From Vulcanimicrobiota bacterium (GTDB lineage: Bacteria; Vulcanimicrobiota; Vulcanimicrobiia; Vulcanimicrobiales; Vulcanimicrobiaceae): a stretch of DNA of 33,920 nt. The stretch spans positions 1-33,920 of the forward strand of contig PLCF01000081.1 in NCBI GenBank assembly GCA_003135555.1. The letters are read 5' to 3'. Shown here one piece after another: positions 26,301 to 32,300 of the stretch. Made by a program: the position numbers. Position 1 is the stretch's first letter. Each line of letters opens with the position of its first letter.

Positions 26301-29300
26301 CGATTCGCGCCGCGGTCGCGCCGTTCGAGCATGTTCGCGCGATCGGCGAAGACATCGTCGCCAGTGAGGTGGTCGTCCCGGCGCTGCGGCGCCTGGTGAG
26401 CGCCGATCTGGCGGCGTGCGCTGCCGCCGGCGTGCTGCGCGTCGAGGTCGTTGCGCGGCCGCGTGTTGCCGTCATCACCACCGGCGACGAGCTCGTCGAC
26501 GTCGGCACCGAAGCGCCGCCGCCGGGTGCGATCTTGGACTCGAACGGGGTTTTGTTGCGCGCCTGCGCGCGCACGTACGGCGCCGAGGTCGTCTTCGCAC
26601 GCCGCGTCCGCGACGACGAGGCGGAGCTGCTCGCGGCGGTGGAGCACGCGATCGCCGCCGCCGATGTGGTCGTCGTCAACGCGGGTTCGTCGGCCGGTCG
26701 CGACGACTACACGGCGCGCACGTTTGCACGCTTCGGCGAGGTCGTCGTTCACGGTGTCGCGATCCGCCCCGGCCACCCGCTCGTTCTCGCGGTCGCGAGC
26801 GGCTCGGGGCGGGCTGTTCCGCTGCTGGGAATCCCGGGCTATCCGGTCAGCGCGGCGATCTGCGCCGAGTTGTTCTTGCGACCGCTCCTCGAGCGGCTGG
26901 GCCGGCGCGACGGGCCCGACGCGCGCGACATCGAGGTCGAGCTGACCCGCAAGCTGTTCTCGCCGTTGGGCGAGGACGACTACGTGCGCGCCGTTGCCGC
27001 GCGCGTCGACGGGCGTCTCGTCGCGACGCCGCTGCGCCGCGGGGCCGGTGCGATTACCTCGCTCTCGCGCGCCAACGTGATCCTCACCATCCCGCGCTTC
27101 AGCGAGGGTGCGCACCCCGGGACGCGCCTGCTCGCGCGCGCACTGCGGCCGCTCGCGCAGATCGAGCGCACGTTGCTGGCGGTCGGGAGCCACGACGTCG
27201 CACTGGATTTGCTTGCGGGAAGGCTGGCGAGCGGCGGCACCGAGCTGGTGTCAGCGCACGTCGGGAGCATCGCGGGGCTCGTAGCGCTGCGCGAACGCTC
27301 GGCCCACCTGGCCGGTACCCATGTGCTCGAGCCGCGCACCGGTACGTACAACGAGGATGCCGTGCGGCGGTACGGACCCAACGAGCCGGTCGCACTGATC
27401 CGGCTCGCGGATCGCGAGCAAGGCATCCTGGTGGCGCCCGGAAATCCGTTGGCGATCGCGTCGCTGGCGGACGTCGTGCGGACGCGCGCGCGCTACGTCA
27501 ACCGCCAGAAAGACGCTGGGACGCGGATTCTGCTCGACGCGCTGCTCGCATCCGCAGGCATTGCGGCGGAATCCGTCACCGGCTACGAACGGATCGAGTT
27601 CTCGCATCTCGCCGTCGCGCAGCTCGTCGCCGCCGGCAACGCCGATGCCGGTCTGGCGATCGGCGCGGCGGCGCGGGCGTTCGGTCTAGACTTCATCCCG
27701 GTCGCGTGGGAACCGTACGAGCTGGCGCTCCCGGCGCGAACGCTCGACGAGCCGCGCATCGCCGCGCTGGTCGCAATCCTGCGTGGCGCCGCGTTCCGGA
27801 GCGAGGTCGAGGCGTTGGGCGGCTACCGCTGCGCCCGCGCCGGAGAGATCCGAGTCGTCGAGCCGCTCGCCCTGGAGGTTCCGTGAAGCTACGCCGACCG
27901 TTCGCGCTCGCGCTGGTGCTGGCGTGCAGCGCTGTCCCCGCCGCCGCCCGCACGCCCGTGCCGATCGGCAGCTTCGCCGCCGGGCCGCTGGACGGGATCA
28001 CCGACGTCGCCGGGATCCGCGTCGCGCACGTCACCAAGGTCGAAGGTACCAGCGTACGCACCGGTGCGACCGCGATCGTGCCGAACGACGACATCTGGAA
28101 CCAGCGCGTCGCCGCCGCGACCTTCGACCTCAACGGCAACGGCGAGCTCAGCGGCGCGCACTGGGTCGATCAGTCGGGCTTTCTCGAGGTGCCGATCGTC
28201 CTCACCGACACGCTCGACGTGGGGCGCGCTGCCGACGGGGTCGTGTCGTGGCTGATCTCCAAGCACCCGCAGATCGGCGTGCGCGAAGACGTTCCGCTGC
28301 CGGTCGTTGCCGAATGCGACGATCAAGGCATCAACGACATCGCGGGCCGTCACGTGCACCCCGAAGACATCGTCGCGATGCTCGACGCTGCCAAGCCGGG
28401 CGACTTCCCACGCGGCAACGTCGGCGCCGGAACCGGGATGCGCGCCTTCGGCTTCGCGGCCGGGATCGGGTCGGCGTCGCGCCTGCTGCCCAAGAACCTC
28501 GGCGGCTACACCGTGGGCGTGCTGGTCAACGCGAATACCGGCTCGCGCGGCGAGCTGCGCATCGACGGCGTCCCGGTCGGCCGCGCGTTCGCGCACGAGC
28601 TGCTGCCGGTGTATCCGCGCTCGGCGGGATATACCGCACCGACCCGCGGTCGCGCGGCCGACGGGAGCATCATTATCGTCGTAGCGACCGACGCGCCGCT
28701 CGATCATAACCGTTTGCACGACATCGCGAAGCGGGCCGGGATGGGTCTGGCCCGCGCCGGCGCAACCTCGCACGTCTCGAGCGGCGACCTGTTCATAGCC
28801 TTCTCGACGACGCACCGCTACCCGCGCGCCGGCGGGATCAGCGGCCCGGGCGTCGAGTCGGACGATGACCGCGTCGACGCGCTCTTCGCGGCCACCGTCG
28901 ACGCCACCGAGGCGGCGATCGACGACGCCCTCTTCAGCGCGCATACGGTGAGCGGCCGCAACGGCGTGACCTACTACAACCTCCCCTACGACCGCGTGCG
29001 CCCGCTGCTGGCGCGCTGAACGGCGCGGATCAGGTCCAGCTCGACGCGCGCGCCGGCACCCCGGCCGCGGCGGCCGCGGTCGCGGCGCGCAGCGCGCCCA
29101 GTTCCTTTTCGCCGGCCAAGTCGGCGGCGCGGTCGTAGACCGGCGCCGTCGCGGTCACGAAGCTCTGTCGCTGCGCGTCGTCTTGTTCGGTGACCTGCAT
29201 GCGGCGGCGCAGCTCGGCCAGCGCCTCGGCATCGAACTTCGCGGCATACTCGCGCTGCCAGGCGATCGCGCGTCGCGCCGCTTCCTCGACGAGTCGGCGC

Positions 29301-32300
29301 CGCGGGCCGAGCGCGGCCAGCAACTCGGGATTGGCGATGAAGATCTGCGGCGTGTACGTGTGCGCGGTGATGGTCAGGTAGCGCTGGTGCTCGTAGAACT
29401 TGGAGGCAACGATCGAGGGCAGCGGGCTGTCCTGTCCGTCAACGCGCTTTTCGCGCAACGCGTCCCCGAGCTTGACCAGCGGCATCGGAACGGGCGTCAC
29501 CTGGAGCGCGCCGGCGACGTAAAGATGGATAGGCCCCTCGAGGGTGCGCATCCGCAGGTCGCGGATGTCTTCGGCGACGCGCAGCTCGCGCACGTCGTTG
29601 GTGTAGTGGCGCACGCCGTTCTCGCTGTAGCCCAGAAACGCCAGCTCCACGCTGGCGCCGCGCGCCAGCAGCGCGCGGCCGTAGGCGCCGTCGAAGGTCG
29701 CAAAGGCGTGTTTGCGGGAGCGGAACAGGTACGGCAGCTCGAGCAGCTGCAGCGCCGGGAGCAGGCTGCCGATCAGCGACGAGTTCACCGGCGCCAGCGC
29801 GAGGTCGCCGGTGCGCAGGTCGATCAGCAGTTGCGTCTGGCGCTTCTCGTACGGGATGACGAGCTCGACGCGCAGCGCCCCGTCCGACAACGCCTCCAAC
29901 TCGCGCTTGAACTCGCCGAGCATGCGCGCCGGCAGCGATTGCGGCGCCGCGGCGACGCCCACGCGCAGCGCGCGGGTGGGAACGTGAACCGCCGGCGTCG
30001 CGGCGCGCTCCAGCGCGAGCTGCTCGTGGCTCTGGAACTCCAGGTTGCCGATCCATTGTTGCGTCTCGGCCGTGTCGGCGAAATGCTCGCGCACGCTGCG
30101 CAGCAGCGATCCGGCCGCCGAGCCGTATTGATCGCCGGCGGCGATCTCGCTGTCGATGAGGCGCTCGACCTCGGCGAACGTCGCCACCACTTCGGCGACG
30201 GCGCTCGAGATCGCGTCGAGAGCGGTGCGCGCGCCGCCGGCCGAGCTTTCGCTGCCGGCCACGGCGGCGTCGAGCGAATCTCCGAACGCGCTCGTCGATG
30301 CACCGCGCTCGGCGATCTGCCGCAGCAACTCATCCATGTCGCGGGTGGCCTCGCGCGTGGACTCGGCGAGTTTGCGGACCTCGCCGGCGACGACGGCGAA
30401 TCCGCGGCCGTGCTCGCCCGCACGAGCGGCCTCGATCGAGGCGTTGAGCGCAAGGAGGTTCGTCCGTTCCGAGACTTCGCGCACGAAGTCGACGATGCCG
30501 TCGATCTTCTGGGTGAGCGCGAGCAGTTCGCCGATCGATCCGAGCGCGCTCTTCGTCACCCCGGCGAGCTCACCCGAGGCCGTGGTCAACTCCTCGATGC
30601 GGCGCCCGGCCGAACGCAACTGCTCGTCGGCTTCGGTGGTGCGAACACGCGCGTTGGCGACCGTGCGCCCCGCGCCGCGAACGCGCTCCGCCGACGCCAG
30701 GGCCGTGCGCGCGATCTCCACGATGGCCGTCGTTTGGGCGATCCCATTCGCAGTGAGGCGGCCCGAGGCGGATCGCAGGCGTCCGATGGCGGCGCCCGTC
30801 TGCGTGCCAACTTCGCGCACGCGCGCCGAACGCACGGAATCCTCGGGCTGGTCACCCCGGCCGGCGCCGGTGGCGTCGGCCTCGGTACTCAAACTGAGCC
30901 TCCTCGGACGAGCCACGTGGCTACGCTCGTCCTGCTCACCGGCCCGTTCCGTTCGAGCGACGCGCGGCCCTGGGCTTGACGCGAGCCGACTCGGCGCGTA
31001 TTATACCGCTAGGTTATTTAACGAGATGGTTTCACACATGGCACCAGAACCTCTCAGCACGACCCTCGCGGCGCTCGCCGACCCGACGCGGCGCGCGATC
31101 CTGGCTCGCCTCGCCCAGGGCGAAACCTCGGTGACCGAACTGGCCAAGCCGTTCCGCATGAGCCTTCCGGCCGTGTCCAAGCACCTCAAAGTGCTCGAAC
31201 GCGCCGGCTTGATCGCGCGCGGCCGTGCGGCGCAATGGCGGCCGTGCCGGCTCGACGCCGGCCCGCTGCGCGAGGTCGCGGAGTGGGTCGACGGCTATCG
31301 CCGCTTCTGGGACGAGCGCCTCGGGCGCCTCGACGACTATCTCAGCGAATTGCAGACGAAGGAGAAGAACCATGGCTGAACGCGATACCGCGCGCAGCGC
31401 GCGCCCCGACATGACGATCGTGCGCGTGTTCGACGCCCCGCGGCAGCTGGTCTGGAAGGCCTGGACCCAACCGCAGCACCTTGCGCGGTGGTTCGGCCCG
31501 CGGGACTTCACGAATCCGGTCTGCGAGGCCGACGTGCGCCCCGGCGGCACGTTGCGCATCACCATGCAGGGTCCCGACGGCCCGCTGTATCCGATGGTGG
31601 CGGTCTACGACGAGGTCGTCGAACCGGAACGATTGGTGTGGACCACCGACGTCGAGCACGACGGCAACGTTTCGTTCGAGATCCGTCAGGTCACGACGTT
31701 CGCCGAACGCGACGGCAAGACGGAGCTGACGCTCCATGCCTTCGTTGTGCGCTCGACGCCGGAATCGGCCGATGCGCTCGGCGGGATGGAGCAAGGCTGG
31801 AGCCAGAGCCTGGACAAGCTCGACGCACTACTCGCTCGCGGCTAGCGCAGAGCGGTCGGGGCCGGTAAGCGCGCCGTAAGCCCATCGTTCTACGCTAGCG
31901 GGTGGCTGGTTTGCCGGGAAATCGCGAACCGGCCGACTCTGACGAGGGAGATTGCCATGATCCATTCTGTTCGCCGCGGGCTCATCGGGGCGCTTGCGCT
32001 TTTGGTCGCCGGTGCGCTGCCGGCGCCTGCTCAGACGCGGCTGAAGTTGTCCGACACGATAACGTTACGTGACGGCGCGTGCTGGCTCGTCTCCGACGCG
32101 ACCGACATCGAAAAGCCCCCGGAGCCTAAGGGCCCGCAGCACTGCATCTTCGCCGACTCGCCGAGCTCGCTGGCGCGTGTGTCGGTGCCCGGCAATACCG
32201 ACGAAACCACCGTGTTCGAGTACACGATTGCGGCGGACGGCACGATCACCGGCAAGGGGCGTGAAGGCCTCAACCAAGCCGCCTATCCGTGCACCATCAC

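Follow-up and report, generated by a model that had tools for sequence, protein, structure and literature searches.

A soluble chemoreceptor with a C-terminal TRAP substrate-binding domain in a Vulcanimicrobiota bacterium and its apparent link to a MarR-family regulator

The window, i.e., the whole 33,920-nt stretch of DNA analysed, encodes on its minus strand a soluble chemoreceptor (MCP-DctP) with a full-length signalling hairpin, an intact tip and a complete DctP (TRAP substrate-binding) domain as its sole input, and without an export signal. A second protein of the same genome, MarR-DctP, carries a DctP domain behind a MarR DNA-binding domain. A small organic acid of the cytoplasm is the probable stimulus of both proteins. 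We consider it likely, if well short of certain, that the soluble receptor came to read a cytoplasmic acid and that a MarR gene later captured the 3' part of a receptor gene.

Gene and architecture of the receptor

The features of the receptor gene are as follows.

29030..30892, minus strand: gene of the soluble chemoreceptor MCP-DctP, one uninterrupted ORF of 620 aa
30899..30905, minus strand: GAGGAGG resembling a ribosome-binding site, 6 nt ahead of the TTG start (sequence inspected directly)
30005..30847, minus strand: MCP helical hairpin, residues 16-296 (AlphaFold2 helices 16-157 and 164-296)
30308..30520, minus strand: signalling tip (CheA/CheW-binding region), residues 125-195 (conservation, invariant columns)
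30014..30103, minus strand: end of the C-terminal arm, residues 264-293, the predicted DctP docking helix
29972..30004, minus strand: linker, residues 297-307, variable and of low model confidence
29066..29971, minus strand: complete DctP domain, residues 308-609 (profiles, Foldseek)
29609..29611, minus strand: R428, equivalent of Arg152 of 4P47 (R in 137/141 fused domains)
29546..29548, minus strand: R449, equivalent of Arg173 of 4P47, which forms the salt bridge to the carboxylate (R in 141/141 fused domains)
29426..29428, minus strand: S489, at the position of the supporting Asn213 (alignment of fused domains)

The length of 620 aa follows from taking the TTG at 30892 as start. Scanned in a 628-aa frame, the protein matches Pfam MCPsignal at 113-256 and DctP at 330-596, both over cut-off (105-248 and 322-588 in the 620-aa numbering); MCPsignal scored 97.9 bits against a cut-off of 34.6. 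The NCBIfam TRAP_S1 match was also over cut-off, and TIGR00787 reached 138.7 bits, under its cut-off of 175. Foldseek aligned the DctP domain with 4pdh, 7bco and 7bbr at TM 0.90-0.92 over ~300 columns.

The hairpin arms comprise 20.6 and 19.4 heptads, and the hairpin span aligns gap-free to the genome's own membrane receptor (contig C20), the ungapped register test being weak outside the tip. Identity to 27 relatives is 62-96% in the tip and 20-86% in the arms. The docking helix includes the near-invariant R268, the invariant H270 and E276, a putative methylation position. Since a strict methylation consensus occurs neither in MCP-DctP nor in the genome's membrane receptor, it is the conservation of E/Q at positions 59 and 276 (25/28 each in the receptor alignment) that suggests adaptation.

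No HAMP, PAS or membrane segment lies N-terminal to the hairpin. By hydropathy, the N-terminus is not hydrophobic and no stretch resembles a membrane helix; a hydrophobic N-terminal stretch was found in 1/86 short-form and 0/7 two-hairpin rows, compared with 100/119 stand-alone DctPs, and the genome's four stand-alone DctPs start with twin-arginine-like motifs. With neither an export signal nor adjoining dctQM genes, MCP-DctP does not fit the role of a TRAP transporter subunit. Single contigs bridge the junction in all four sequencing runs inspected (four studies, one possibly the source of the assembly), and 26 of the 33 strain differences listed fall at third codon positions, a count that leaves out MCP-tip rows likely belonging to other receptors. 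An assembly or frame artefact as the cause of the fusion was rejected on the homologues, the junction-bridging contigs and the strain differences. The first-pass annotation had described a soluble chemoreceptor with the MCP domain first and DctP last, and this is borne out by the ORF, Pfam, hydropathy and the bridging contigs.

Distribution of the receptor and descent of the MarR-fused domain

The family proved wider than the 4 of 20 order genomes previously noted: matches, a few of them partial, occur in 22/101 genomes of the order, spanning both families, and in 25/44 genomes of the genus. Of the 120 best homologues, 89 combine MCP with DctP. Two-hairpin relatives of 880-890 aa hold DctP between the hairpins of one chain. 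No other output domain (kinase, cyclase) occurred on this DctP lineage among 28 Pfam-scanned hits from the best 150 representatives, the remainder of which are of stand-alone length and lay outside the scan. A search of genome contigs for related loci, with patterns derived from the MCP tip, returned 78 loci, one of them relevant. The gene itself is an orphan, with no conserved neighbours (ORFs by codon score, read by eye). Pilus-assembly-like genes, also read by eye, lie within the same window.

Carriers of the receptor possess the chemotaxis kinase. CheA was found in 15/15 other carrier genomes, and within the family the receptor occurs in 15/28 CheA-positive and 0/43 CheA-negative genomes, which are kin and not independent. 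The genome under study has an flhA-PilZ-cheY-cheC-cheA-cheW cluster, plus CheR, CheB and FliF (FliF was looked at in this genome only, its relatives being compared by CheA and CheR); its single CheA match lies inside this flagellar cluster, and CheD was not found in the assembly, which is 84% complete.

The MarR-DctP fusion had been placed at C58:6395-7876. Its domains are confirmed by Pfam (MarR_2 at 58-117, DctP at 192-466; MarR 42.8 and MarR_2 45.7 bits, both over cut-off), and wing and helix residues of the MarR domain are invariant in 17 rows. The proposed start is doubtful: the TTG at 6395 falls within a conserved -35 box, and translation likely begins at a CTG at ~6455, preceded by a GGAGG site. 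The fusion, earlier reported from 6 of 20 genus genomes, is found in 10/44, two of them with broken copies. The hydropathy test flags 21/39 MarR-DctP rows; the flagged stretch coincides with a helix within the MarR profile match and would thus be no signal peptide.

The DctP domain of this regulator appears, from its sequence relationships, to have been taken from the chemoreceptor family. In trees, MarR-DctP is nested within the chemoreceptor DctP clade (support 100/97 and 99/95), and the alternative was rejected (AU p=0.0105). Moreover, five divergent MarR-DctP linkers keep a piece of receptor helix, which scores 23-30 bits with the receptor-family profile against 8-10 with generic MCP arms and was reached in 0/1000 shuffles for the three of the five linkers shuffled. 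The first-pass annotation had seen two unrelated signalling proteins, i.e., separate recruitment of transporter DctPs by MCP and MarR. The nesting, the AU test and the family-specific relics largely refute that reading, which we regard as highly improbable; what still speaks for it is the linker of the genome's own MarR-DctP, where the relic was undetected (3.5 bits, 48/1000 shuffles), and, in part, possible long-branch effects, since fused DctP domains evolve fast and shared long branches may aid their grouping.

MarR-DctP heads an ABC/oxoprolinase-family/D-glutamate-cyclase operon. A conserved promoter element abuts the -35 box in 10/11 MarR-DctP loci, is a perfect inverted repeat in 3 and is missing from 6/6 loci without the regulator. 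The motif has one exact and four one-mismatch matches in the genome under study, with none in the window. The operon stands without MarR-DctP in 6/6 other genomes checked; the regulator is therefore dispensable. Most likely MarR-DctP would regulate its own promoter and the downstream operon in response to a substrate or product of that pathway, candidate ligands from the gene context being 5-oxoproline and D- or L-glutamate. The protein is also on record in Vulcanimicrobium alpinum, a cultured isolate (WPS_30980, WP_317995385.1).

Ligand site, predicted docking and competing explanations

Site residues were numbered on 4P47, following PMC11668362 (section 5). The Asn213 equivalent is N in 129/141 fused domains and in 54/55 of MCP-DctP's own clade, S489 being the sole exception in the latter. 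At the positions of Asn213, aromatic 196 and acidic 76, MCP-DctP has S, L and Q, and MarR-DctP N, F and E. MCP-DctP's clade retains the acidic residue in 0/55 and the aromatic in 1/55 rows; 39/39 MarR, 18/18 two-hairpin and 5/5 clade-B rows keep the complete set of five site residues. Because this clade has lost both the aromatic lid and the acidic residue that binds the hydroxyl, the ligand of MCP-DctP would probably be a monocarboxylate with a tail less polar than the hydroxy acids of the closest solved relatives. These losses, together with Ser for Asn213, could also represent early decay.

Docking of the DctP domain on the receptor hairpin scored 0.78, the best of three controls 0.00. The mark applied is reached by 116/157 solved and 2/215 mismatched pairs, counts that are only roughly valid here; with both docking partners taken from a single chain, as its halves, and folded with a custom paired alignment, the setup favours a pass. 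Runs agreed in at least 93% of contacts, with a partner pLDDT of at least 90. In the predicted receptor dimer, both DctP lobes pack on the end of the C-terminal arm, at the usual site of HAMP and the membrane anchor. At interface positions 353, 357 and 458, stand-alone DctPs mostly carry R, E and D/E, and fused ones mostly uncharged or hydrophobic residues. The SiaP residues touching SiaQM are D58, S60 and E172 (PMC9352664). Conservation at the predicted interface hardly exceeds that elsewhere (0.63 vs 0.60 in DctP, 0.62 vs 0.53 in the arm). The model of a two-hairpin receptor (pLDDT 72, pTM 0.54) is poor in its DctP part, and hairpin pairing cannot be read from it.

On this model, ligand binding would close the two DctP lobes and shift the packing of the C-terminal arm helix, the adaptation region; the change would reach the tip, then the one CheA-CheW pair, encoded in the flagellar che cluster, and finally CheY. 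The earlier proposal of a cytoplasmic DctP acting as a sensor gains indirect support from the missing export signal, the intact arginines, the persistence without DctM, the co-occurrence with CheA and the predicted docking.

One competing explanation makes DctP a structural cap that is blind to ligand: standing in for HAMP and the membrane anchor, it would impose a constant bias on CheA. The stable predicted docking would suit a cap, as would the acidic and aromatic site residues missing from MCP-DctP's clade and the Asn213 missing from this copy; we nevertheless judge the cap unlikely, as the two arginine columns rank with the best conserved across 141 fused domains, the MarR, two-hairpin and clade-B rows retain the whole five-residue site, and site residues vary clade by clade, as expected of specificity. 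If a ligand is sensed, the output might be something other than flagellar chemotaxis, such as a chemoreceptor-like regulator or control of type IV pili. The orphan gene without conserved che neighbours and the pilus-assembly-like genes in the window favour such an output, which is rendered quite improbable by the conserved tip, the sole CheA match in the flagellar cluster and the presence of CheA in all 15 other carriers.

Instead of a metabolite, the cleft may hold a carboxylate from a peptide or protein, either its C-terminus or one of its acidic side chains. An open, less polar site in MCP-DctP's clade would accommodate one, and 4P47 reportedly holds its own C-terminus. This close solved relative is in the open state according to PMC11668362, and the ligand-bound TRAP relatives surveyed there hold small acids (pantoate, erythronate, sugar acids). 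The latter, together with the MarR-DctP gene context, which suggests small-molecule catabolism, leaves us giving this option very little credence. That DctP still partners the TRAP membrane unit DctQM, coupling transport to chemotaxis from inside, is scarcely believable: DctM is present in the three sampled short-form carriers and in the genome under study, but 11/12 long-form carriers, two of them single-contig genomes, have no DctM match at E<=1e-30, no dctQM adjoins the gene, and the predicted receptor interface occupies both lobes. A broader form of the favoured sensor explanation, which strikes us as evenly poised between right and wrong, sees DctP as a portable sensor whose lobes clamp the adaptation helix, with closure leading to kinase control; it would extend to tandem paralogue pairs and the two-hairpin receptor, and the domain would have been handed to MarR with a scrap of helix.

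Signalling from the C-terminal sensor of cytoplasmic chemoreceptors is poorly understood. The MCP-DctP family is soluble, its input is a hinge protein that has been studied in depth, and the interface predicted for it is specific, which makes tests with purified proteins possible. The transfer from receptor to regulator is a rare domain swap in which the donor's scar is still legible; if the portable-sensor reading is true, a one-component transcription factor was born from a chemoreceptor. In databases these fusions go by the name of ordinary DctP transporter subunits, so that in this phylum of soil and peat transport is overstated and signalling goes unseen. A cytoplasm-adapted DctP with built-in transcriptional output is also a starting point for biosensors.

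Comparison with known systems

The first-pass annotation rightly cautioned that such fusions may sit unnoticed in domain databases. The supplements of PMC8547431 already catalogue DctP as a chemoreceptor domain, in 8 of 72,480 cases (PBP-type ligand-binding domains total 332 of 72,480); the type is given in the tables as cluster 1481, and DctP is unmentioned in the main text. Its entries include Sporomusa acidovorans, Dendrosporobacter quercicolus, CLJU_c11640 and Treponema sp. GWC1_61_84. These receptors share the domain order of MCP-DctP, MCPsignal followed by a C-terminal DctP, which is therefore cytoplasmic there too. The five visible entries are membrane-anchored by N-terminal helices, whereas MCP-DctP has no membrane helix. 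Two Sporomusa-type proteins have longer hairpins than MCP-DctP and DctPs nested among stand-alone ones; joining the two to the MCP-DctP clade was rejected (p=0.019), and with it a single origin of all MCP-DctP proteins. DctP does not appear in the main text of 10.1101/2025.06.24.661292.

The nearest Atlas clusters are chemoreceptors that end in another kind of solute-binding domain. MCPsignal-SBP_bac_3, -Peripla_BP_4 and -Phosphonate-bd/NMT1 receptors likewise have signalling first and the binding-protein domain last, some of them without membrane helices, but their binding-protein families differ from the DctP of MCP-DctP; the literature searched held no experimental study of them. The TRAP proteins 4PDH, 4P9K, 4P47, 7BBR, 4PDD, 4NQ8 and 4XEQ (the pantoate/erythronate/sugar-acid group) have the same fold (TM ~0.9) and the arginine pair. 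They are exported and paired with DctQM. The docking surface of the fused DctP is less charged than theirs. At ~30% identity to solved TRAP proteins, the ligand of the fused DctP is not fixed.

LacI/GalR and LysR regulators join a DNA-binding domain to a periplasmic-binding-protein fold that serves as a cytoplasmic effector sensor. More generally, regulators contain sensor domains that are matched by SBP profiles (PMC9602780). The pairing of MarR with DctP differs from LacI/GalR and LysR, and its sensor is traceable to a chemoreceptor donor. DosM (Vibrio cholerae VC1403) is a double-signalling-domain receptor. The 880-890 aa relatives of MCP-DctP would resemble DosM in having two hairpins per chain and differ from it in holding DctP between the hairpins and in a gene outside any che cluster.

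A soluble chemoreceptor with a single input domain

The MCP-DctP fusion is genuine and conserved, and databases misname it. The minus-strand open frame of the receptor gene spans 30916–29030, and a GGAGG site 6 nt upstream of the TTG at 30892, the start chosen in the first-pass annotation, backs that choice and gives a 620-aa product (P0002). Both domains reported there for one ORF were found by Pfam, MCPsignal at residues 105–248 and DctP, the TRAP substrate-binding domain, at 322–588. Contigs from 4/4 sequencing runs bridge the MCP-DctP junction, and three of these runs are recorded as peat metagenomes from studies other than the possible source. 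No promoter-like site for the receptor gene was found on the minus strand.

29030–30892, minus strand: P0002, the soluble MCP-DctP receptor
30976–31004, plus strand: sigma-70-like promoter (10/12 matches), serving divergent ArsR-like/SRPBCC-like genes (named by eye)
1–11500: stretch with a GC of 0.46–0.53, compared with 0.65–0.72 elsewhere in the window and ~0.68 genome-wide, an island or alternatively a chimeric join; its genes encode, among others, an OmpA-family protein and coproporphyrinogen oxidase, an AAA ATPase alongside a DUF4435 partner and, judged by eye, a toxin-antitoxin-like pair

The fold predicted for P0002 (AlphaFold2, 28 rows; mean pLDDT 78.9) comprises helices 16–157 and 164–296, a loose linker and the DctP domain, which matches solved TRAP binding proteins at a TM of 0.90–0.92. 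Only ~15 low-confidence residues precede the hairpin, so that DctP is the sole input domain. A hydrophobic N-terminal stretch occurs in 1/86 short-form rows (one hairpin with C-terminal DctP) and 0/7 two-hairpin rows vs. 100/119 stand-alone DctP proteins, and each of the four stand-alone DctPs of this genome begins with a twin-arginine-like motif.

Both domains are present in 89 of the best 120 P0002 homologues, of which the named ones belong chiefly to Eremiobacterota (Ca. Elarobacter, Ca. Velthaea). In the Atlas, the nearest cluster comprises 249 members, most commonly Vulcanimicrobiota. Among 151 phylum genomes, full-length matches were found in 15 besides the window's own, all of the same family (Vulcanimicrobiaceae), three of them carrying the short form and the other 12 a long form of 880–890 aa that has DctP placed between two hairpins (11 copies intact, one frameshifted). 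Receptor matches occur in 25/44 genus genomes, counting the unpublished G236, and in 22/101 genomes of the order; the presence in both families noted previously from 4/20 order genomes thus holds, with a wider spread. Tandem MCP-DctP paralogues at two loci, L023:5864–9498 (stop/start overlap) and L106:511–3942, might form heterodimers and may mark a route by which the two-hairpin form arose. Other DctP fusions among the representative sequences (P0211, P0290, P0199, P0174 and P0168) are DctP-Peripla_BP_6, DctM-DctP-DctP and tandem DctP.

Origin and operon of the MarR-DctP regulator

A second fusion, on another contig of the same genome, joins MarR and DctP domains, as claimed and as found by Pfam. 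Position 6395 falls inside a −35 box, and the start is therefore better placed at ~6455.

C58:6395–7876: MarR-DctP gene, with the limits first assigned to it

Homologues carry both domains in 37/38 cases, and 10/44 genus genomes encode the regulator. In trees of DctP domains only (FastTree, 268 rows; IQ-TREE quick, 55 rows; IQ-TREE careful, 40 rows with 15 left out), rooted against the stand-alone DctPs that best match a profile of the fused domains, all soluble fused domains form one clade. The careful IQ-TREE run joins the short form to MarR-DctP with a support of 100/97, adds the two-hairpin form at 99/95, and then adds a membrane-anchored sister group, which takes in Sulfuricaulis proteins, at 99/97. 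Placement of MarR-DctP outside the chemoreceptor group was rejected (p = 0.0105), as was joining the membrane-anchored receptors of the Sporomusa type to the soluble fused clade (p = 0.019).

Independently of the trees, 5/33 MarR-DctP rows have a linker matching the C-terminal arm of the receptor (~residues 209–260) at 23–30 bits, compared with 8–10 bits for generic MCP arms and 5–16 for the receptor family's other arm; for three of the five, the score was reached in 0/1000 shuffles. A sixth linker sequence, that of P0170, which stands for three rows, reaches 6.1 bits (0/1000 shuffles), and the window genome's own linker 3.5 bits (48/1000), the relic being eroded in this copy. Based on the trees and these relics, the regulator appears to have taken its DctP sensor from a receptor gene, and the earlier proposal of recruitment by two unrelated signalling proteins is not supported.

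MarR-DctP lies directly upstream of livKHMGF-like ABC genes in 10/11 loci and otherwise of the series' next gene. Hydantoinase/oxoprolinase A and B, whose best NCBIfam match is caprolactamase, below cut-off, are present in 10/11 loci and D-glutamate cyclase in 9/11; two contigs end earlier. Since the cyclase occurs in 39/44 genus genomes, the regulator is an optional addition to the operon. A −35/−10 pair is kept upstream of 11/11 loci and a conserved element adjoins the −35 box in 10/11; this element is absent at 6/6 loci with the same operon but without the regulator. From the gene-family names of the operon we infer that the effector may be 5-oxoproline or glutamate. According to PMC11485210, SAR11 has pyroglutamate uptake beside oxoprolinase genes, by a different protein. 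Tricarballylate genes (tcuA and tcuB-like) follow the cyclase gene in the window's genome (L001:16938–19407, on C58), and tcuA is also found at two of the other 10 loci.

Signalling output

CheA and CheR are each present in 15/15 other receptor carriers, and within the family the receptor is carried by 15/28 CheA-positive vs. 0/43 CheA-negative genomes, although kin are not independent. DctM, the TRAP membrane subunit, had no match (E ≤ 1e-30) in 11/12 long-form carriers, two of them single-contig genomes, so the DctP domain is retained without its transporter. The window's genome (84% complete) has a single CheA, within a flhA-PilZ-cheY-cheC-cheA-cheW cluster, together with CheR, CheB and FliF; CheD was not found in it. 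The P0002 hairpin aligns gap-free with the genome's membrane receptor, and the two could therefore share one array. P0002 showed no strict methylation motif; E/Q occurs at positions 59 and 276 in 25/28 rows each.

Two more soluble-looking receptors in this genome, C30:8482–11085 (minus) and C31:17802–20495 (plus; loci L128 and L129), each have two MCPsignal stretches and a ~200-aa C-terminal domain without a Pfam match. Another genome, G011 (99% complete), has MarR-DctP, no MCP-DctP match, and a CheA match with one internal TAG (C1:1310199–1310429).

Binding site, predicted docking and known systems

In PMC11668362, binding residues (4P47 numbering) are Arg173, forming a salt bridge, supported by Arg152 and Asn213, with an aromatic residue at 196 and an acidic one at 76. 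Mapped by alignment onto 141 fused DctP domains, the equivalents of Arg173, Arg152 and Asn213 are kept in 141, 137 and 129, respectively, and all five positions are intact in 39/39 MarR and 18/18 two-hairpin rows. Both arginines are retained in the window's clade (55 rows), as is Asn213 in 54 of its rows, the single exception being Ser in the window's copy; acidic 76 is absent from this clade and position 196 is aliphatic. These alterations are read as a probable change in specificity, with early decay as the alternative. The ligand would presumably be a small carboxylate, a class being all that ~30% identity to solved relatives can name; the nearest of these bind pantoate, erythronate or sugar acids (PMC11668362).

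Two copies of residues 20–296 were modelled with a partner DctP (305–612), parts that belong to one chain with a shared alignment. The docking score was 0.78, vs. 0.00 for the best of three controls; the score mark is met by 116/157 solved complexes and 2/215 mismatched pairs, counts only roughly valid here. Contact agreement between runs was ≥93% and partner pLDDT ≥90. No solved MCP-DctP complex was found, and the model supports a predicted binding of DctP to the hairpin end. The predicted interface comprises, on the receptor side, residues 264–293, 47–58 and 24–31 of the second copy, and DctP residues 353–377 and 414–416 on one lobe and 445–469 and 588–592 on the other (the lobe assignment follows from the offset to the IseP domains). 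Stand-alone DctP mostly has R, E and D/E at positions 353, 357 and 458, where fused DctP is mostly uncharged or hydrophobic; conservation of interface columns is only slightly higher than elsewhere. In such a two-lobe grip, lobe closure would strain the docking helix.

PMC8547431 catalogues DctP as a chemoreceptor domain in 8/72,480 entries; in the five of these that were examined, membrane helices precede MCPsignal, and MCPsignal followed by SBP_bac_3 or Peripla_BP_4 is also catalogued. The accessible text of PMC9602780 and PMC8050422 has SBP profiles matching sensor domains in general, with no DctP case. No study of soluble MCP-DctP or MarR-DctP was found in the literature searched, which covered few subscription journals; the MCP-DctP architecture is thus a catalogued class, yet one without a study there. 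What is new is the soluble lineage, along with the coupling predicted for it and the MarR regulator derived from a receptor. For the coupling, the HiSiaPQM model offers a likeness at lobe level, its two lobes likewise sitting on two transporter parts (PMC9352664).
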